From Macrostomum lignano (lineage: Eukaryota): a stretch of 64,000 bases of DNA. The position numbers were made by a program, and so were the translations under genes. The stretch is taken from positions 186,001-250,000 of the forward strand of contig NIVC01000886.1 in NCBI GenBank assembly GCA_002269645.1, in the 5' to 3' direction. Below the pieces are notes generated by a model. The model saw only the letters and a program-made list of their open reading frames with translations. It had not been told where the DNA came from and did no database searches. Below are positions 21,481 to 64,000 of the stretch, in pieces (position 1 is the first letter of the stretch; the number at the start of each line of letters is the position of its first letter).

Positions 21481-21735
21481 ATAAGAGGGAGAGAGATACA
21501 TTAGAAGAAGCGATGGAAGAGACCAGGCGGGGAAAGAAAAAGCGGAGCGAGATGAAGGGCCGAAAGATGTAGATTGGCAGCTGAGCGGACAAGGTATGCC
21601 TGAGAATCTCTAATTCCACTTTAAACTTCAAAAAACTTATTATACTACTTACCTGGGCTCTAACTGTGAGTAGCAATTTCCTGATCTGCAGATAACTAAA
21701 TACCAGACCCCCCGTCTGTGCCTCAACACCTGCAG

Positions 21736-22111
21736 CACCGATGCATCACAGGAGCAGCAAGTGGAGCGCCAGAGTCAGCCACTGAAGACCGCCAAGCTGG
21801 CAGCATCTCTGGATGCCTGTCTCACCTGGCTCCGCGACGCCGGCGGTGCAGCTGCAGAGGCCGAGACCTGGCTGTCAGGCCTGACCCACTGGGACGATTT
21901 GCCCGGCTTGAGAAAAGTGCAAGCTCGATTCGAAGCCCTGCAGATCGGCCTGGAAGCTGAGGGAATCCGGTTGAAGGCTCTTCAAGATGAGGCTGCGGCT
22001 GCTGGAGGCTGTGGGAATGGCGCAGTCGCTTCTGCGGAGGTCAACGGGAAGGATTCCGCCGGCAAAGCGGATGTTGAGGAGGCTGAGGAGATCCGGGATC
22101 GGCTGGATGAG
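21736..22111 (+). CDS. Dys: Dystrophin-family rod exon E2 (phase 2-0); alternative phase-0 acceptors at 21691, 21706 and 21751
   Basis: Acceptor cccccgtctgtgcctcaacacctgcag with branch-like taactaa about 40 nt upstream; donor GAG|GTGAAT at 22112. Encodes LAASLDACLTWLRDA...RKVQARFEALQIGLEAEGIRLKAL...EIRDRLDE, a spectrin-repeat pattern. The 5' boundary is uncertain. Confidence 0.75.
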
Positions 22112-22175
22112 GTGAATCTTGCATTCTTAGAAATGGGATTATTTCATGTTATTTAATGTGCGAGCAATACGATCC

Positions 22176-29805: not shown

Positions 29806-30444
29806 GACAGTCAGACAGTGTCATGCACACACAGTCAGCACATGCAGGCTAGGTCATCTACCCACACGCATGATATCATAACTGGGTAAACTGATTTTCC
29901 AGAAGCTACTGAAATGAAGCGAGGGGTTTAGAGGAGATGATGAGCGGAGAGGAGAAGAGGAGAGAGAGAGAGAGAGAGAGGGGGAACGAGAGAGGCTCCT
30001 GGGAAGCGCTGAAGCAGTGTGGTTGGGTCACTTGAAATCAGTGTGTACTCACTATATGCACAACAGCCTCTAACCAACCTTCTTGGCTCTCCGGCTCTCG
30101 CATCTTCTTCACGTCTTTTTTTGTTGCCAACAGGGCAAACTGTTTCTAACGAAAAAATATGCACGAACAGGCATATAACACAAAGAATATATGCATATAC
30201 ACGCGAAACTTCCTATAGACCCGATGTCCAGCCACTTGTCGCAGCTGGGGTTAAACATGACACACTGCAGCTGGCAACTGGGACCGGCGTGGAGATTTCC
30301 AGATTCGTCTCCGCCTCCTCCAATCGCCGATCTGTCCCGCGAGCTTTAGTTGCTAGCCGAAAGCAGGAGGGAAGAAAGTTAAAAAGCAGCCCAAGGGCCC
30401 TCGCTCGGACAGTCTGTAACCGGACAAGTCGGACGGACACAAAA

Positions 30445-31957
30445 ATGTCTGGCTACTGGAACAAATTCGGCCAGGTGTTCCGCGCCACCAAGGCGCTCTC
30501 GTCGGCGTCGTTGAACCTGTTCGATGACGGAGCGGAAGATGGCGAGGATGGCATCGCCGGGAGCAGCGGCGACGGGGGTGCCAGCGAACCGCTGCCAGAC
30601 CTCGGCGGCATCACCGGCTGGATCGCCAAGCGCGCCTCGGTGGTGCTCAGCGACTGGGATCTCAACAGTGACGACGAAGACTACGACGAATCGGATGATA
30701 ACGAAGTCCGCAACGCCGACAGTCGAATCCCGTTCGAGATTCCCAGCCTGCGGAACGCCAGACAGGCTGGCAAGCTGCGCAGTCTGGAGGACCGGCTGCG
30801 AGACGGCGCCGCAGCCAGCGTCGCTGCATCCGCCGCTGCCGCCGCTGCCGCCGCCGCCGCCGCCTCCGCCACCTCAGCAGCTCCATCAGCTTCAACAGCC
30901 GCCTCAGCATCCGCTAGCATGGGCAGCAGCCCGACCCCGAGTCCGGCGCACCTGTCCCGCAGGCAGCAGCCAGCCAGACAACCGTCTCAGCGAGGCTCTT
31001 CGTTGAGGGAGACAAGTCGAAGACCGCTGCACTCTGTGCCGCCTCCGCTGCCGCCGCCGCCTCAGCTGCCGCCGCCGCCACAGCAACTTCAAAAATTAGA
31101 AGCTTCTAAAGCTTATGAGGCTCAAAGCCAGAAGCATGAACACCAGGCTCAGCCTGCGAATCAATCGTTACCATCGACTCAGCAACAGGAATGCACAGCT
31201 CAGCCACTTCAACCACCAACTCAGCAACCGGAGCCTATGACTCAGCAAAGTCAATCTCCAGCTCAAAAAACTGAGTCTCCTAGTCAGAAACTTCAAAAAC
31301 CCACTCAGCAATCTCCTCCGACTTCGCTACCGCAATCTCCGGTTCATCAATCTCAACCATCGACTCAGCAATCTGAACCATCGACTCAGCAATCTGAACC
31401 ATCGACTCAGCAATCTGAACCATCGACTCAGCAACCTGAATCATCGACTCAGCAATTTAAAACAACAAATCAGCAAACTCTTCGAAATCAGCAACTTCCA
31501 CCGAATCAGCAACATCAACTATCAGCTCAGCAACCTCAACAATCGACTCAACAACTTCGAACACCAAATCAGCAGCCTCAACCTTCGACTCAGCAACCTG
31601 AACCACAGACTCAGCAACCTCAACCTTCGACTCAGCAAACTGAACCAAATACTCAGCAACCTCAACCTTCGACTCAGCAACCTGAACCACAGACTCAGCA
31701 ATCTCAACCTTCGACTCAGCAACCTGAACCACAGACTCAGCAACCTCAAACGCAGCCCAAAAAACCACCTCAGCAGCGCCCACTGCCGCCGCCGCCCCGA
31801 CCGCCCAGACCGGTCTCCAAGCCGTTAGTCTTTGCGGGAACTCCAGCAGCAGTTGTCAAGGAAACCAACTCTGAGAGGAAGAACTCCGACTCGCCTGTTT
31901 CCAATAAGGATGGAGGTTTTCATTCAAAGAATGAAGAGACTGGAAACTCATCAGATG
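30445..31957 (+). CDS. Large Q/P-rich alternative exon of the dystrophin gene (first exon from ATG 30445, or cassette exon from acceptor 30133)
   Basis: ATG in caaaaATG context, GC-rich coding-like codons (MSGYWNKFGQVFRATKALSS...), about 504 codons, donor G|GTCAGT at 31958 in phase 1, the same phase as E5. The frame is also open upstream to a strong phase-1 acceptor (tcttttttt gttgccaacag, 30133). Confidence 0.65.
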
Positions 31958-32007
31958 GTCAGTATGGGCGCTTCTGGTTTAGGGTAGCTTTAGAGTAGAT
32001 TTTTGGG

Positions 32008-44385: not shown

Positions 44386-44528
44386 AAGTTGTCAGCAGAT
44401 GAGTAGATAAGTCAGGTTTCAGTGAAAGTCAAAGAAAAAAGTGTGTCAGGTAGTGCTTGTCAGCTGAAACAGTCTGTGTCAGATTCATAAACCAAGTGAG
44501 TTTATGACCCTCCGCCCGCCACCCGCAG

Positions 44529-45172
44529 CCGCTGCCACTGTAGCGAGTTGCGAAGCGACCGAACGAAATCTGCAGCAGCGCAGAGCCGAGATGGAGGAGG
44601 CGGCCATCGAGCTGCGCCAGTGGGAGCAGCTGTGCCGCCAGACCGAGTCGCTGCTCAGTCAAGTCGCCGACGGCCCGGCGCCGCCGCCAACAGAGCTGGT
44701 CCGACAGCTCGAGAGTCTCATCGACAGCGGCGAACTGCTCAGATCCAAGTACTCCGGAGAGGACACTCAACCGCTGCGTCAGAGACTCGCTCGACTGTCG
44801 GCGACTCTTGCCGGCATTCGAGGAGCTGGCGGCGGAGCTGCGGCGACCTCCTGCAGCAACGGAGCGGCGCTCGAGGACGACTCGCAGCCGCCGCCACAGC
44901 CGCCGCCACAGCCGCCGCCGAAACCCAACGCTGCGGTGGTGGCGGCCGCGGCGGCCAGGCGTCGACGAGAGAGCGGCGGCGGCGATCCCGACGGCTGCGA
45001 CCGGCTGGCCAACGGGGCCGCTGAGGATGCAAGCAAAACGGGAGATGCTGCGGCCGGTGATGAGGCCACAGTGGCAAAACTGGAGACCAGGGCCGCCTGC
45101 TGGGAGGAGCGGCTGGCGGCTGCGGCTGCGGGAACTGCGGAAGATGGAGGAGGAGAGGACGCGTGGCTGAAG
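44529..45172 (+). CDS. Dys: Dystrophin exon E6: end of R20, R21, low-complexity insert, start of R22 (phase 1-0)
   Basis: Acceptor ccgcccgccacccgcag and donor AAG|GTGAGG. NLQQRRAEMEE...QWEQLCRQTESLLSQV resembles human HLQNRRQQLNE...QWLEAKEEAEQVLGQA, and KYSGEDT (YSGEDT at 44750-44767) resembles DYSADDT of R21 (recalled sequences). Confidence 0.85.
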
Positions 45173-45204
45173 GTGAGGCTGGGGTTGCGACTGTCAGTGC
45201 TGCG

Positions 45205-45467
45205 ACTGTGTGCTCAGGGATCTGTGTGCTCAGGGATCTGTGTGCTCAGGGATCTGTGTGCTCAGGGATCTGTGTGCTCAGGGATCTGTGTGCTCAGGGA
45301 TCTGTGTGCTCAGGGATCTGTGTGCTCAGGGATCTCTGTGTGCTCAGGGATATGTGTGCTCAGGGATCTCTGTGTGCTCAGGGATATGTGTGCTCAGGGA
45401 TATGTGTGCTCAGGGATATGTGTGCTCAGGGATCTGTGTGCTCAGGGATCTCTGTGTGCTCAGGGAT
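45205..45467. repeat. 16-bp minisatellite
   Basis: Unit gggatctgtgtgctca; starts about 30 nt after the E6 donor. Confidence 0.95.
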
Positions 45468-46139
45468 CCTCGGCCACTCGCAGATAACCAGATGCACTTT
45501 CTACAAAATAGTAATCTTATTAGCATTCATTCCTAAGCATTTTAGGAGTTTTCTCCCAGCGTCTGTTTGCAAATCATCCCAAAGGACCATTGTGGGCAGC
45601 ACAGGCCATCTCGCGGCAGGATGTCCATGAGTCGGATATAAATTTTCCAACCCTCGGGGGGTCCGGCTTGGGGAACCCAGAATCGACTTGGGTATTGGGT
45701 TACAGTCCAGCCCTCCCTAAGTCTGGGCTACCAGTTCACTCTAATTTGTGACACTGCATCCGCCCTAATTGCATGACATGCTCCTCAGCCAGTCACCATC
45801 CTCTCGTGCACAAAGATGTCCGAGATGAACTCAGTAGGCAAACCCAGAGAGACAGCAAAAAAGTTGCTACTTGCATAACGAAAAGTTACCAATTAACTCT
45901 TTATGAAGATGGCGTTTGGGGGGAGGCAAAGCTATTGACTATGCTCTGTAGTGACTACTAGTGGGTTTTGCAAAAATTATTCAAATAAAGTAATTTCCAG
46001 CCAAAAATGATTCGCTTTTTCTACTGAAAGTAGCTAGTTCGCAAACTTATGGGTTTTGCTTTCATTAACAATATTTTTCAAATTAAATAGAATTCTAGTC
46101 TACTACTCACTTTTTTCGTTTTCCTCTTCATCTTACTCT

Positions 46140-57885: not shown

Positions 57886-58005
57886 AATAAGAGACATAAG
57901 TATTGGTATTTTGAATTCTCAAAGGATTTGATGTCCCCATGTAGTCCCCATGTAAATAAGCATCAAACTCCAGCTCACAAAACTAGTTGGTCTCCCACCT
58001 CCCAG

Positions 58006-58674
58006 GACCTCGACGCCGAGAGTTTGCTGCACTCCGCCGAACTGGAGATCCTGTCGCATCGCTACGCCAACGTGTCCTGCGGCGGCACCAGTTCGGATCC
58101 TCGAGCTCGACTCCGGGCTCGGCTGGACAATGTCAACCAGCGCTGGCGACGGCTCGGCGAGCAGGCGGCGGAACTGCGCAGCCGGATTCGTCGCCAGGAG
58201 GACACCGCCTGGCAGGGCATGCTGGCCAGGCTGAAGAGTCTCAACGATTGGCTCGCCAGTCGAGACGCTGGACTTCGTCAGCGACAGCTCCTGCTGGGTG
58301 GCGACAGCGCCTCGCTACGCCAGCAGATCAGCGAGCACGAGACTCTTGTCGGCGAGTTGCAGTCGCGTCGAATCGAAGTTGAGCAGGCCCTGGAGCAGGG
58401 CGAGAGCTACTTCGGTCAGCAAGACTTCGCAGGTGGGCAGCAGCAGCAGCAGCAGCAGCAGCAACTCCCGCGGCCAGCCAGTGCGATGAGTCAGAGCGGG
58501 CACGAGTCCGGAGCTGAATCAGAGGACGCCGGAGGCGAAGGCGAAGACCAGCAGCAGCCGCAGCAGAAAAATCTGCGACTGACGCGACGGATTCGAAGGA
58601 ATTTGCATCAACTGAAACGGCGATGGCTGGAGTTGAACTTGCGAGTTAGAGAGTACCAGGAGAAGCTGCAGCAG
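58006..58674 (+). CDS. Dys: Dystrophin exon E7: R22-R23 (phase 0-0)
   Basis: Acceptor tctcccacctcccag and donor CAG|GTTGGT. RLDNVNQRW..L...AAELRSRI...W..MLARLKSLNDWL...LGGDSASLRQQ...HE...LTRRIRR...W parallels human RLDNMNFKWSELRKKSLNIRSHL...WL..KDDEL...IGGDFPAVQKQNDVH...VTRLLRK (recalled). Confidence 0.92.
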
Positions 58675-58694
58675 GTTGGTGGCCACACTTTGGG

Positions 58695-58755
58695 GTGATT
58701 AGATGTTATACTATGGTGTGATTAGATGTTATACTATGGTGTGATTAGATGTTAT
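58695..58755. repeat. 23-bp minisatellite truncated by the LTR insertion
   Basis: gtgattagatgttatactatggt at 58695 and 58718; the third copy (58741) stops after 15 nt at the LTR end. Confidence 0.9.
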
Positions 58756-59743
58756 TGTTGTACCTTTGGTTGTCCTGCTGTACAGCGCAGTGACTTAGGC
58801 TTCGTCCTCTCACTTAGAAGCCTTCTTAACTTTAGTAGCGTAGGTAGTGCTGCCACCAGTTCCTTCAGGTCTCGGCCTTCGGTGAGGTGAGCTTCCCGTC
58901 GGAACGAAATAATGAAGTCAACGAACACAGCACGACGTGCAGATTTGCAGCTCAACGTATAAGGCGTCTCGTCAGCAGTACCTGCCGGGCTAGGATGGTA
59001 GAGGGAGGGCTGAGTTAGCCTCTCGTAGACTTGGGTTGACTTGGTCGGGTTTCAGTCGGAGCAGTAGGAATAGAGTCAATACTCGCAAAGGCTCGGACAC
59101 TCGGGGATTTGGTCACACGCAGACGTAGAACTCGAGGTTGAACAGAAAGAAGACTCCTTGACGGAAACAAGGGGGAGAGAGCTCCTATTTATAGCCGGGA
59201 AACACCCACGCAGAAGACCTCGTGACTTGTTCTATTTTTAGAACTGACGTCACTCGAGAGTCTTGGGCAGGGTACAAGCGTGCGGAAGACCTCGTGACTT
59301 GTTCTATTTTTAGAACTGACGTCACTTGAGGTCCCCGGCCAGAGTACACGCGGCTGTGACTCAGTTGCTATTTTTAGCAACATGAGTCACTCCTCTCCTT
59401 AGAGAAGGGAGGGGTCCGAAAGCACGTGACTCACCCGGTAAACAGGGCCAACGAGTGCAGTAAACATGTTTACTGCACTTTAAGACTCAAAGAACGCAAG
59501 AACTGTCATGTGACTTGCTCACAAGACAGGGAAAACGGGACGGGAGCGAAACAGAGACAGCCCACAGCCGAGAGGCTGTGGGCTGAGAACGGAGACGCAG
59601 AAGGCCAGAACAGGCCACGGGCAGCAGCAGACAAACGAAAGGGAGGGGCGGGAAGCTGACCAGCGGCAGACAGCAACCCAGGGCGGAGGCGAGGGAACAG
59701 CTGACAAGTGCGACGCCTAACCATAAACTAGCGGCTCACTACA
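58756..59743 (-). repeat. 3' LTR (988 bp), TGTAGT...ACAACA
   Basis: On the minus strand it starts TGTAGTGAGC directly after the purine tract and ends GTACAACA (imperfect terminal inverted repeat). It has a TATA-like CTATAAATAG at 59194-59185, with tandem enhancer-like repeats upstream. Confidence 0.8.
59185..59433 (-). promoter_or_regulatory. LTR U3 promoter/enhancer: TATA, MEF2-consensus sites, CRE, AP-1 and E-box motifs
   Basis: CTATTTATAG 59185; CTATTTTTAG 59232, 59304, 59368; TGACGTCA 59245, 59317; TGACTCA/TGAGTCA 59357, 59383, 59427; CACGTG 59423. These are motif matches only; function is untested. Confidence 0.6.
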
Positions 59744-59755
59744 CTCTCCCCGTTC
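59744..59755 (-). other. Polypurine tract (plus-strand DNA primer)
   Basis: Minus strand GAACGGGGAGAG abuts the LTR TG. Confidence 0.8.
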
Positions 59756-60391: not shown

Positions 60392-63300
60392 TTATTCCGC
60401 TCCGGGTCCATCGCAGCGCCGTATGATGTCCGGTACCTCTGGAGTGCGGCCAGCGATGTGCTCCGCAATCAGCCGGGCTGCCGCTCGCGCCGCTTCAGGG
60501 TACGGCGGGTTGCGTAGCGTAGGTGCTGCCAGATGTGCGACCTCATCCATGAGACGCTGGCGGTCCTCGGCGCTAAGGGCTCTTACGGCGGCCCACCGAG
60601 GCCACGCGGCCAGGTTTGGTAGGATACCAAGCTGGGCTGCGGCTGTTAGTTGCTGGCCTAGGTAATAAATGGTTTCGATATAACGGGAGACCGCAGCTTG
60701 CACGTCCATCAGCGGAGGGTCCTGGCGCTGTGCCGCGGGCTCGGCGTCGGCCGCGTCCTGGTCGGCCGTCGGGGGCTCCGGTGAGCTGGGCGGGGCTGCC
60801 GTCGCCGGGTAATCGGGGCCGACGAGAGCCTGGCGGAGGTCCGTGGCCAGGCCCGCCCAATCGGTAGTTTCGAGAGGCGCGTCCGCCTGACAGGCGGCTT
60901 CCGCTGTCGTGGGCGCCTCCGGTGGGCTGGACTCCGGGGTGGTCGGGAGCCTTGGGCCGTCATCGGTGGGCGGCGTGGCTGGTTCCATGCGAAGCTCCGG
61001 CCCGGCGATCCTAAAATCAAAGGGGTCATTGGCAACTGCCGTTTCCGCTTTAGGCTTCTGGTCCTTAGTGAGTGCCTCCGGTTGTAGCGCTGGCTGTACA
61101 GCTGCCTGCACCGTTGCAGGCGCCTCGGGGACCGGGACCTCAGGTCGGGGCGGTTGTAGTTGTTGTCGCACCGCAGCAGTTCCTCGTGACACGGCCTTCT
61201 GGATGTCGACGTTATGTGCCACCTTCTCGCTCTTGAGGCGGCGCACGGGGTTGTCCGGCTGAGTGAGATCGATGAACATCGGTGGGGCAACCGCCGTGGC
61301 TCCGGTCGAGGCTTGCCCACTGGATGGCCGGGCGACGTCGCGAGCTTGATCGGTCTCGACTTGCATGCGGATTTCAGCCAGGCCGCGACTAACTCCGTCC
61401 TCGGGGTCTGTCTGGCGGCATCGAGCCCTGCGCCTCCGGCGCGATCGCCTGGACGGGCGCCTCTCAGGGGGCGGCGAACGGGTCCTAGATGGCGGTGACG
61501 CGAGCCGGCTGCTGGCCCGGGATCCAATTCGATGCTGGAGGGCGCTGCGGGGTGCATCCTGCGGACCGCCGAAAGGCTCGTACTGGCCAGCGGCCGCGCC
61601 AATTGGTGGCCCCCGGAAACTTGGGACCGAGGCGTCTCGGCGGCGAATCTGCCTTTGGCTTTCCTCGGAAGAGGAGCGCTCAGTGCGCTTCGTGGAGCGT
61701 TGCGAGTGCATTTCTGCGCTGAAATGCGTTTCAATTTGTGCGCGGATGCGGGCGGTGCGGCTATCATAAGTCTTAGCCCTAGGATTAATAATCAGCCTCT
61801 CAGGCTGCCTACGATTCCTAGCCGGCCTACCGGCATCTACCGTTCCTAATGACGCTTCCACCGGAGTGGTGCATAGCGACGGCCCAGGGGTCTGGACCAC
61901 AGAAAAAGCAGCACTGGGGGCAGGAGCAGAAACGGGCGGAAAAGAAACAACAGGCGTAGACGCATCAAGAACAGGCTCATGCAAATGACATTCACCATAC
62001 GGCACTGGCTCACGCCGAAGTGCACTTGCCTGGTTCGCTGGTGTCGTGACCGGTCCACCTCCTGGCTGCACCTCCGGGATCGCCAAAGGCCGGAAGTGCC
62101 ATCGGAGGGCCGGCCTTGCGTCGTAGCCGTCATCATCATCATCATCGGGGTCGTCCTGGTCGTCCTCGGGAATCGACGTCAGGGTCGCGGGTCCTGCGCC
62201 GTCGGGGACGTCGGGCGGTCGCCGACGTTTCTTCGGTTTGTCGACTTCAGGATCGGAAGTCCTCGTGTAATCGGCGTCAGGCACGAGTAGGAGGTTCCGG
62301 CGATGGACGATTAGTTCGTCTCGTCTGGCTCTCGGGTTGGGCAGTCTCCGTCGAATCTTGTAGACGACCTCGCCCTTGGGCTCGACGACTTCGTATAAGG
62401 CTTTGCGAGGTCGATGAAATTTCGCCGCTTCATCCGGTTCGAGCACCGGGTTGTTGAGGAAGACCAGATCGCCGGGTTGGAGCTTCTTGGCGGCGGGCAG
62501 GTTCGAGTAGTGCTCGTCTCGCAGTTGTTGGTGCAGGTGCAGGCGCTCCTTGGCCAGCTCAGTCGCCTCGTCCAGGCGACACTGGAAGTCTTTGACGTAG
62601 TCGGGCAGATCGGCGTACTCAGGCAGCTTCTTCAGCGCGTTGTCGATCGGGAGTCGGAAGTCACGGCCGAACACCAGGTAGTGAGGCGTGAAACCTGTCA
62701 CCGGGTGGACGCTGGAGCGGAGAGCCATCAGGCAGGCTGGGAGGTAGGTATCCCAGTCGTTGTGGTTGCGCTCAAGCAGGCAGGTGAGGACCTTCTTTAG
62801 TTGTTTGTTCAGATTCTCGACTTGTCCATTGGAAGCTGGGTTGTATGGTGTTGTTGTCGTGTGCCGAATGCCGAACAGGTCGCAGAACTTCTTGAAAGCT
62901 GTGCCGGTAAAGTTGGTGCCTTGGTCGGTGTGAATCCAGCATGGTACACCGAATTCGGGGATGAAGCGCTCTTGCAGAAGCTTGATGACTGTTTTGGCTT
63001 TCTGGTTTCTCATCGGGTAGGCGAATGGATACTTCGACGTCGCATCGCACAAGGTCAGGATGTAGCGGTTGCCGCTCTTGCTTTTCTGCGCGATTGGTCC
63101 TACTACATCACAGTGGATTCTACCCAGAACTTCGCAGACTGGGAAGCTCTGGACCGGAACTCTTTCTCGCCGTCGCGATTTACTTTCAAGGCAGGTGCGG
63201 CACTTACTGATGAAGGTCTTGGTAGCACGGGCTAATCCGGGTCTCCAGAACCGTTCTCGTAGCCGCAGTAACGTCTTCGTCTCGCCGAGGTGTCCACACA

Positions 63301-64000
63301 GTGGCGAACTGTGGAGCTCCTGGAGCACCTGGGCGTCAAGGGCCTCAGGCAGAACAACCTTTGGCGGCTGCTGGCCATCGGACAGGTCAATCAGCAGCAG
63401 GCCGTTGTCCTCCTGCAGGTTCTCGTAGTATCCGAGCAGGTTCCGCTGCTCCTTCGTCAGGCGCAACCGGGCGTCGAACTCAGGCTTCGGGGCTTCGTCC
63501 TTGACCAGGTTGAGCACGTAGCTAATGGCTCGGTCAGCGCGCTGGGCTTCAACGAACTGTTGGCGAGTCATCGGCAGTTGCAGAAAATCAGTGAGCACAG
63601 CGCGGCATGGCTGAGGGGTCATGACTACCGCAGTCTCCGCTTTAATGGCTCCAGGTCGATCACACAGCACCGTCTTGTCGGCGTCAGGATTAGGTCGCTC
63701 CGAGGGACTTTGTCTCACAACGTCGGCGTACGTCCGTTGATCTCGAATCGAAGTTCTCTTCATCGCTCTCATGACAGAAGATTCCGCAGATGGAGCAGCG
63801 CGCATGCCTCCACTGCATAGCACAGGCGACTCTTGGCTGTAGGGCGGGACGCAACACGTGAAGCACGCCTCGTCGCAGGCAGCCGTAGCCGTCGGCTCGG
63901 TAGTCATCAAAATTGGGTGAGTCTTCTCCTGCACTGGGCGGTGTCGCAAAGGGGGACTCGACTTTCCGCACAGGCGATGAGCAGCTGTCTGTTGGCCCGG
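60392..64000 (-). CDS. Pol C-terminal part: integrase (HHCC zinc finger, DDE core, GPY/F-like region) plus a long C-terminal extension
   Basis: The frame is open to the window edge. LHSSPLCGHLG...KCRTC (H at 63313); RIHCDVVGP (D 63109), IHTDQGTNF (D 62926), SNGQVENLNK (E 62818). Stop at 60392-60394. Confidence 0.92.
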   Translation of the reverse strand, partial: PGQQTAAHRLCGKSSPPLRHRPVQEKTHPILMTTEPTATAACDEACFTCCVPPYSQESPVLCSGGMRAAPSAESSVMRAMKRTSIRDQRTYADVVRQSPSERPNPDADKTVLCDRPGAIKAETAVVMTPQPCRAVLTDFLQLPMTRQQFVEAQRADRAISYVLNLVKDEAPKPEFDARLRLTKEQRNLLGYYENLQEDNGLLLIDLSDGQQPPKVVLPEALDAQVLQELHSSPLCGHLGETKTLLRLRERFWRPGLARATKTFISKCRTCLESKSRRRERVPVQSFPVCEVLGRIHCDVVGPIAQKSKSGNRYILTLCDATSKYPFAYPMRNQKAKTVIKLLQERFIPEFGVPCWIHTDQGTNFTGTAFKKFCDLFGIRHTTTTPYNPASNGQVENLNKQLKKVLTCLLERNHNDWDTYLPACLMALRSSVHPVTGFTPHYLVFGRDFRLPIDNALKKLPEYADLPDYVKDFQCRLDEATELAKERLHLHQQLRDEHYSNLPAAKKLQPGDLVFLNNPVLEPDEAAKFHRPRKALYEVVEPKGEVVYKIRRRLPNPRARRDELIVHRRNLLLVPDADYTRTSDPEVDKPKKRRRPPDVPDGAGPATLTSIPEDDQDDPDDDDDDGYDARPALRWHFRPLAIPEVQPGGGPVTTPANQASALRREPVPYGECHLHEPVLDASTPVVSFPPVSAPAPSAAFSVVQTPGPSLCTTPVEASLGTVDAGRPARNRRQPERLIINPRAKTYDSRTARIRAQIETHFSAEMHSQRSTKRTERSSSEESQRQIRRRDASVPSFRGPPIGAAAGQYEPFGGPQDAPRSALQHRIGSRASSRLASPPSRTRSPPPERRPSRRSRRRRRARCRQTDPEDGVSRGLAEIRMQVETDQARDVARPSSGQASTGATAVAPPMFIDLTQPDNPVRRLKSEKVAHNVDIQKAVSRGTAAVRQQLQPPRPEVPVPEAPATVQAAVQPALQPEALTKDQKPKAETAVANDPFDFRIAGPELRMEPATPPTDDGPRLPTTPESSPPEAPTTAEAACQADAPLETTDWAGLATDLRQALVGPDYPATAAPPSSPEPPTADQDAADAEPAAQRQDPPLMDVQAAVSRYIETIYYLGQQLTAAAQLGILPNLAAWPRWAAVRALSAEDRQRLMDEVAHLAAPTLRNPPYPEAARAAARLIAEHIAGRTPEVPDIIRRCDGPGAE

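Follow-up and report, generated by a model that had tools for sequence, protein, structure and literature searches.

Our data show that the pol reading frame of a young Ty3/gypsy retrotransposon of the flatworm Macrostomum lignano runs on beyond the integrase into a tail of 439 amino acids, which constitutes a real and previously unnoticed accessory protein family. By sequence comparison, this tail seems to act as a separate accessory gene, i.e. it has its own ATG behind a splice acceptor that is used, evolves at its own rate, has been lost as a block, is under purifying selection and carries a conserved SUMO-interacting motif (SIM). Thus, the suggestion of a preliminary description of this DNA, that the end of the frame looks like a separate protein, has held, and we regard the architecture set out below as highly probable. 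Our explanation as a whole—a fused accessory gene that is likely also freed by trans-splicing to a spliced leader (SL), and that most likely shields the element from SUMO-dependent silencing—is more tentative, and we consider it plausible rather than probable.

The element and its pol frame

The window, i.e. the whole stretch of 64 000 nucleotides of contig NIVC01000886.1 that was analysed, holds the 3' half of a 10.3 kb element on the minus strand (G000:C886:244756-255093). The element is young, as its two LTRs (988 bp each, TG...CA) are 100% identical, and it is bordered by an ATAA target duplication. It has a PBS starting with TGG, a PPT, and a gag ORF with a CCHC knuckle (zf-CCHC), which is followed by pol in another frame. 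Pfam finds zf-CCHC, RVT_1, RT_RNaseH, H2C2 and rve in that order along gag-pol, and a protease motif, LLDSGS, can be read by eye in the pol frame. LTRs, duplication, PBS, PPT, CCHC gag and the order protease, reverse transcriptase (RT), RNase H, integrase are those of a Ty3/gypsy element. The pol frame of at least 2201 amino acids comprises RT, RNase H, an insert of about 330 residues, integrase and tail; its 3' part is the stop-free minus-strand frame 64000-60392, which extends upstream as the pol frame. The landmarks of the preliminary description, i.e. KPKKRRRP (62239-62216), an acidic D-run, GRPARNRRQPERL (61831-61793), the ATG, FIDLT and the TAA, were all recovered where it had placed them. 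The features of the 3' half are as follows.

58756..59743, minus strand: 3' LTR, 988 bp, TG...CA, identical to the 5' LTR outside the window and followed by the ATAA duplication (LTR comparison)
59744..59755, minus strand: polypurine tract (sequence)
60392..64000, minus strand: 3' part of the pol frame with RNase H-integrase insert, integrase, linker and accessory tail (frame analysis)
60392..61711, minus strand: accessory ORF, 439 aa, with basic disordered N-half, SIM, acidic Pro-rich linker and helical C-terminal domain (sequence and structure prediction)
60410..60712, minus strand: predicted all-helical domain, about 100 aa (pLDDT 88.8, pTM 0.80)
60884..60901, minus strand: EAACQA, site of an LC8-like xQT in other tail types, degenerate in the window copy (alignment)
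61262..61276, minus strand: SIM-like FIDLT; [VFYC]IDLT in 11/13 tail types (alignment)
61421..61486, minus strand: Arg/Ser-rich segment RTRSPPPERRPSRRSRRRRRAR (sequence)
61719..61724, minus strand: acceptor TTTCAG, 7 nt ahead of the tail ATG; the first whole codon beyond it is where the related-type gene model P0005 starts (copies and models)
61719..62029, minus strand: 311-nt GC-AG intron, CCAG/GCAAGT...TTTCAG/CGCAGAAATG, coding for 106 integrase-linker residues if retained; precisely absent in C2766, C1069 and C1341 (314 nt)
61741..61745, minus strand: divergence point of tail-less sister elements, whose stop lies 9 codons further (copy alignment)
61793..61831, minus strand: GRPARNRRQPERL motif, presumably an integrase end motif of the usual type (sequence)
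61985..62104, minus strand: nucleotide-conserved block round the GC donor, 88-97% identity between pol groups versus about 60-85% in its flanks; codons 361-368 invariant in 14 rows
62216..62239, minus strand: basic motif KPKKRRRP on the integrase side, which we take to be NLS-like; retained in tail-less copies (sequence)
62294..62395, minus strand: GPY/F-like C-terminal region, Integrase_p58_C PF22938, aa 536-569 (E 0.015, below the curated cut-off)
62837..63124, minus strand: integrase core, rve PF00665, aa 293-388 (Pfam E 3e-16)
63173..63349, minus strand: integrase HHCC zinc finger, Integrase_H2C2 PF17921, aa 218-276 (Pfam E 1e-14)

The insert of about 330 residues (63350-64000 of the window; L010:7002-7600) separates RNase H from the integrase zinc finger. 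It contains DLEAT-type repeats as well as a Cys-rich stretch and is shared by the other pol groups. In the U3 of the 3' LTR, a direct repeat of about 71 nt with GTTCTAAAAATAGAAC (59284-59352 and 59212-59280; two or three copies depending on the element) presumably resembles a spaced heat-shock-element-like palindrome; three short motifs of the element had no match in the text of the supplement on six M. lignano HSE families. The U5 ends of the family consist of tandem units of 60-90 nt, each starting with a PBS copy, whose number varies up to four on C723 (L113; also L018:9590-9720 on C543, L093, L096 and L127), as if LTRs lengthen once a downstream PBS takes over; the PBS of the window element has two bases more than the commoner form. 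Tandem copies about 8-9 kb apart are found on C3668 (L119/L120), C2137 (L046/L047) and C4250, those on C3668 with a common LTR and a common deletion of about 1150 nt.

The insertion site lies within a 23-bp satellite, antisense between exons of a dystrophin-like gene with a spectrin repeat before and WW and EF-hands after the element. Exons of this dystrophin/utrophin-like host gene occur among long simple repeats at 57931-58695 (+), 21674-22156 (+), 44468-45487 (+) and L011:2775-4043, the first and last recognized by spectrin, WW and EF-hand Pfam hits, the other two by eye. An open frame of 661 codons at 30013-31998 (+), which contains a Gln/Pro-rich repeat and, N-terminally, a MSGYWNKFGQVFRATK segment, is apparently an alternative exon or a nested gene.

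Anatomy of the tail protein

The tail starts at ATG 61711 and stops at TAA 60394-60392. In the AlphaFold2 model, most of the chain is disordered, apart from two amphipathic helices and a single confident domain of five to six helices (aa 334-434), in line with the C-terminal helical domain that had been proposed from the sequence. The first 120 residues are net basic and the remainder net acidic, lysine makes up 1.6% of the tail versus 6.8% of the integrase, and the number of cysteines per tail ranges from 0 to 7, none of them invariant.

Against a background identity of about 40% among 13 tail types, a few short motifs stand out, i.e. GA.AGQ in 10/13, Arg runs in 11/13 and PP.[ST]P in 13/13. 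IDLT is present in 11 of the 13 (mean in shuffled sequences 0.01), and xQT, in several cases TQT, in 12 (shuffled mean 3.0, maximum 8), with the reading of these counts tied to patterns picked after the alignment had been viewed and to types that are kin. Two types have no SIM, and the window copy has ACQA in place of xQT. At the level of the motif, therefore, the SIM that had been noticed in the window copy is a family feature, [VFYC]IDLT recurring in those 11 types. It has acidic neighbours and lies in a disordered region of low pLDDT; a hydrophobic core, acidic neighbours and a disordered setting define a SIM in the portion of the source on which we draw (PMC9071424).

A TM helix is absent since the maximum 19-residue hydropathy is 0.81 in the window copy and at most 1.62 in 14 tails. 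Pfam detects no chromodomain in these 14 tails, and nothing else of significance (best E 0.04-0.1, to unrelated families), so there is no recognizable host-derived domain. With the basic N-terminus, this agrees with the earlier view that the tail is not env-like. A profile search of 1.84 billion representatives returned no homologue outside the family and only three matches, all from within it, and no clear structural match to the helical domain was found. That the tail might belong to a well-described domain is thus not borne out by Pfam or the profile search, and its helical domain is a protein family without a detected relative. By its anatomy, the tail reads as a short-motif nuclear adaptor, neither an envelope nor an enzyme. 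A second frame of 360 codons overlaps it (60709-61791, minus strand), in which no conserved motifs were noticed and which is likely a by-product of GC-rich codon use.

A GC-AG intron at the end of the integrase

The preliminary description had pointed to an acceptor-like gcatttcag near the ATG. This sequence ends at 61719, with 7 nt between its AG and the ATG, and is the 3' end of an intron that is precisely absent in three genomic copies. The GC donor is the sole match to MAG/GYRAGT on the sense strand of the element. One of the intron-less copies, C1341, which extends from LTR to LTR, is of a different pol group and tail type; over the 3.4 kb compared, it differs from its sister C1835 only by the 314-nt intron and 0.3% substitutions (99.7% identity). 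In C3306, the same GC donor is joined to a pyrimidine-rich CAG 826 nt downstream.

Genome-wide, the 20-mer at the exon end occurs at 110 sites, 106 of which continue with G. In each of the remaining four, the exon end is joined exactly to an AG, namely the tail acceptor in three and the CAG 826 nt further on in C3306 in one. As a background, loci at least 90% like a reference contain 14 distinct deletions of 40 nt or more: two have G[TC]..AG ends, both at the GC donor, and 12 have no splice ends. Moreover, the public RNA-based model P0006 follows locus L092 over 709 residues, leaves the genome at the GC donor and ends PANQ/DR; this ending is compatible with one AG in the LTR region, 2926 nt downstream. 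The intron-less copies would be explained most simply if spliced genomic RNA had been reverse-transcribed. As C2766 and C1069, which share flanks, probably represent one event, use of the acceptor rests on two events and use of the donor on three plus one gene model.

As 311 cannot be divided by three, the splice shifts the integrase out of the tail frame; by itself it would make no tail protein and would give a shorter integrase. The earlier idea of a spliced subgenomic RNA like that of gypsy env therefore stands with respect to a used acceptor before the ATG and changes with respect to the donor: the one found in use is a GC only 311 nt upstream, inside the integrase, and no sign of splicing from the 5' LTR was found; no env-type join from a donor near the 5' LTR was seen among the fetched copies or the joints listed.

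The conserved block of about 120 nt round the donor includes fourfold-degenerate sites. It is retained in tail-less copies and could be a splicing regulator, a protein-binding site or an internal promoter. In L113 (C723), a clean in-frame integrase deletion of 762 nt begins at a perfect GTAAGT (equivalent to about 63208 of the window) and ends in GG; this GTAAGT is possibly a second donor.

The tail as a variable module

Only 7 loci came up with the tail as DNA query, a protein search with its last 122 residues gave 95 matches (identity 100% down to about 30%), and a search with the integrase end yielded 154 candidates, of which 40 were scored and the best 30 fetched. Among these 30 best integrase matches, 21 have a tail and 9 have none. 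Between donor and ATG, the frame is open in 19 of the 21 tail-bearing loci; a full tail of at least 420 residues is present in 11, the other 10 being broken. The fusion, the SIM and the AG-N7-ATG arrangement are conserved among genomic copies, with a dN/dS below 1. That other copies might stop after ERL and carry a decayed tail had been considered at the outset: all 9 tail-less loci do stop 27 codons past ERL, ending KTYVSRTARICVHRSTQRSD followed by a short 3' UTR, but their tail is absent outright rather than degenerate. They have lost the acceptor and kept the GC donor. In two more distant pol groups (integrase protein 91-94% identical), intact members carry tails in frame. Since tail, frame and AG-N7-ATG recur in diverged copies under purifying selection, the tail is more than chance.

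There are at least 13 intact tail types, the helical domain of the aligned types being 24-77% identical to that of the window copy, and nucleotide identity between copies falls at the tail ATG. Pairwise Nei-Gojobori estimates on 14 natural copies, many pairs of which are saturated, show that dS steps at this point from 0.03-0.3 in the integrase to more than 0.8 in the tail. For integrase, N-part of the tail and helical domain, respectively, dS is 0.03, 1.29 and 1.61 between C3051 and C1545 (helical dN/dS 0.09), 0.14, 2.10 and 2.22 between C886 and C1545, 0.22, 0.81 and 1.17 between C221 and C251 (helical dN/dS 0.08) and 0.07, 1.37 and 1.31 between C347 and C947 (helical dN/dS 0.22). The helical domain is the most constrained part of the tail: in the pol group of the window copy its dN/dS, where it could be estimated, is 0.04-0.13, versus 0.22-0.53 in other groups. 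The disordered part shows about 0.2-0.36 within groups, and deep pairs 0.3-0.85, i.e. values are below 1 throughout. By these estimates the diversity of tails appears to be old, and an adaptive origin has no support from a dN/dS below 1.

In a phylogeny of 29 rows, built on the 1 kb that precedes the donor, one clade with 100/100 support contains four different tail types, one tail type occurs at three places, and tail-less copies are nested among tailed ones with every outer group tailed. From this distribution, the tail would be ancestral in the family, lost in one lineage and recombining against pol mostly within pol groups. The tail-less elements are numerous and nearly identical to one another, which indicates that the tail is dispensable in cis. 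In tail remnants without integrase (L085-L087 on C317, C16 and C3000), other sequence is inserted between integrase end and helical domain, and the linker shows an expanded GLDVAG repeat.

Evidence for a tail-only RNA

The three database matches are tails annotated as stand-alone proteins, with a fourth coming from a cluster member. These models, P0002-P0005, are identical to the tails of L093, L089, L099 and L092, respectively, and their starts relative to the tail Met are M, M+1, M and M-2, although 554-1228 codons are open upstream; P0005 begins AEM, i.e. with the first whole codon past the acceptor AG. According to the parts of the publications on which we draw, the M. lignano gene-model pipeline uses mapped SL and poly(A) signals to split transcripts (PMC5730564), and about 30% of M. 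lignano genes are SL trans-spliced at acceptors enriched for [T/C]TNCAG, the top SL-acceptor motif (PMC8629364). Tail acceptors read TTTCAG, TTCCAG or TTGCAG and fit this motif; a match in 54/54 is partly circular because the copies had been preselected on YYYCAG.

Because the model starts lie at the acceptor or the Met, the pipeline cuts at SL sites and the acceptors fit, production of a free tail mRNA by SL trans-splicing appears, on the start points of these four models, somewhat more probable than improbable. An internal promoter or an unmapped upstream exon would look the same, and arbitrary model starts are also possible: P0003 starts one codon past the Met and P0006 at no acceptor, so such starts can be arbitrary. 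YTNCAG is an ordinary cis-acceptor too, with 24 occurrences on the sense strand of the element. Moreover, the M. lignano SL ends in ATG, as stated in the portion of the source used here (PMC8629364), which would open a short out-of-frame ORF across the tail ATG.

Possible functions of the tail

Three products can be envisaged. Unspliced RNA, whose frame is observed, would give Pol with an attached tail; cis-splicing from the GC donor, as recorded in the intron-less copies, would give a shorter integrase out of the tail frame; and an RNA beginning at the acceptor, to which the public gene models point, would give a free and putatively nuclear tail protein. The Arg-rich half of the latter may bind RNA or chromatin, its IDLT motif may dock on SUMO, LC8 may dimerize it, and it would act via its helical domain. 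An allele series of tail types would persist while gag-pol is homogenized by recombination, and tail-less elements would either borrow the protein in trans or manage without it.

We favour counter-silencing as the main function, by analogy and with a confidence that stays somewhat below even, because SUMO and LC8, to which the best-kept motifs point, are both found in Piwi-guided silencing in Drosophila, and because a deep allele series that is dispensable in cis suits a trans-acting, host-facing factor. SUMO reportedly acts in this pathway in Drosophila, according to a preprint. LC8 and its TQT motif do so as well, in the part of the source on which we draw (PMC7861614). For a flatworm tail, the Drosophila silencing complex can serve as an analogy only. 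A bolder version, which we find rather doubtful, is that the pol end is run as an operon: host SL machinery would cut a monocistronic counter-silencing mRNA from genomic RNA, a hypervariable allele series with a new helical domain would be shuffled over a common gag-pol, and tail-less copies would free-ride.

A serious alternative, somewhat less likely than counter-silencing and absent from the preliminary description, is a regulator like Rev or CERV, i.e. a free tail that binds unspliced element RNA, plausibly at the donor block, restrains splicing and exports full-length RNA. The splice sites on genomic RNA are indeed used, the donor sits in a nucleotide-conserved block, the N-half is Arg-rich, the acceptor has also been lost in tail-less copies, and Cer1 CERV provides a better precedent than exists for counter-silencing. 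Yet, the tails show no NES-like pattern at one conserved place and no CERV-like Cys loop, the block folds no better than shuffled sequences (z 0.31), tail-less copies keep the donor, and 13 deep tail types are left unexplained by a fixed RNA target.

Less likely again is an integration tether, in which the tail on the integrase, similar to a chromodomain, steers the complex to SUMO-marked chromatin and splicing sets the share of tailed integrase. Chromodomains sit at the same position, behind the integrase; the in-frame fusion is kept across all three pol groups, the 311/314-nt difference preserving the frame, and the splice provides tail-free integrase. However, the fusion needs only about 19 open codons of one origin, and a tether makes the conserved AG-N7-ATG and the tail-only gene models unnecessary. 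Also, the 3' flanks of 17 listed copies, mostly from one pol group, are diverse and mostly AT-rich without a common target, in terms of sequence rather than of chromatin state. Counter-silencing, export and tethering need not exclude each other and could coexist.

Slightly behind the tether we place some other host-facing role, e.g. in interference among element types or as a scaffold of condensates, SIM and xQT then being secondary; this would suit an allele-series pattern on a shared pol and a helical domain that is the most constrained part, but positive evidence for any specific mechanism is missing. That the tail has no function and reflects read-through into GC-rich 3' DNA, its splice sites having arisen by chance, is very improbable. 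Although such DNA has long open frames (as the 360-residue frame over the tail), tail-less copies thrive and 10/21 tails are broken, this reading is contradicted by a helical dN/dS of 0.04-0.13 in closer pairs, most with dS above 1, as well as by conserved motifs, ATG and acceptor and a confident fold.

The tail among accessory genes of LTR elements

To our knowledge, characterized non-env accessory proteins exist in few animal LTR elements, CERV being the example found. Neither a description of the tail nor a retroelement downstream gene expressed via SL trans-splicing was found in the open-access literature, among the matches listed, and in the main text of a paper on M. lignano LTR elements 'splic', 'accessory' and 'additional ORF' do not occur (PMC12801592). 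With more than 100 copies, at least 13 tail types, tail-less sisters and natural intron-less copies, the family amounts to a natural experiment, and its flatworm host is open to transgenesis and RNAi. Should SL trans-splicing produce the tail mRNA, a retroelement would have a way of expressing a downstream gene that needs no LTR donor; should the SIM serve to counter silencing, the role of SUMO in flatworm transposon control would become directly testable.

In errantiviruses such as gypsy and ZAM, env likewise occupies the position behind pol, with an acceptor just ahead of the ORF. In contrast to env, the tail has no signal peptide or TM helix and is not separated from pol by a stop, and a 5'-LTR donor was not found for it. 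Chromovirus integrases carry a chromodomain as an extra C-terminal module after GPY/F, i.e. at the place of the tail, whereas the tail is free of a chromodomain, comprises 439 residues with their own start and acceptor, and has an all-helical domain as its only confident fold. Plant LTR elements are said to have additional ORFs at the env position, which related families have gained or lost. The non-env ORF3s of Juno and Vesta in bdelloid rotifers are extra genes at this position as well, again gained and lost among related families, but are separate ORFs encoding enzymes (GDSL, DEDDy) or TM proteins (PMC5408684), whereas the tail is fused and matches no family.

According to the parts of the source on which we draw, CERV of the C. 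elegans Ty3/gypsy element Cer1 is a nuclear protein without outside homologues that is needed for gRNA export and is encoded by a 3' ORF in the polyprotein frame, also expressed from a spliced mRNA (PMC10309623). Tail and CERV are alike in being 3' ORFs in the polyprotein frame—in CERV, the last exon is in that frame—that are also reached by splicing, as intron-less copies and gene models suggest for the tail. CERV differs in being a five-exon product that starts with gag exons and in its H, M (Cys loop) and G-protein-like domains (PMC10309623, same parts). In the tail, for its part, an ATG of its own follows directly on the acceptor, and most of the chain is disordered, with SIM, xQT and one helical domain; the tail has neither sequence homology to CERV nor a Cys loop, exists in many types in one genome and can be lost. 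Thus, as judged by the features compared, the layout of the tail appears closest to that of Cer1 CERV, yet it would be neither a CERV, an env nor a chromodomain, and seems to work like a non-env ORF3.
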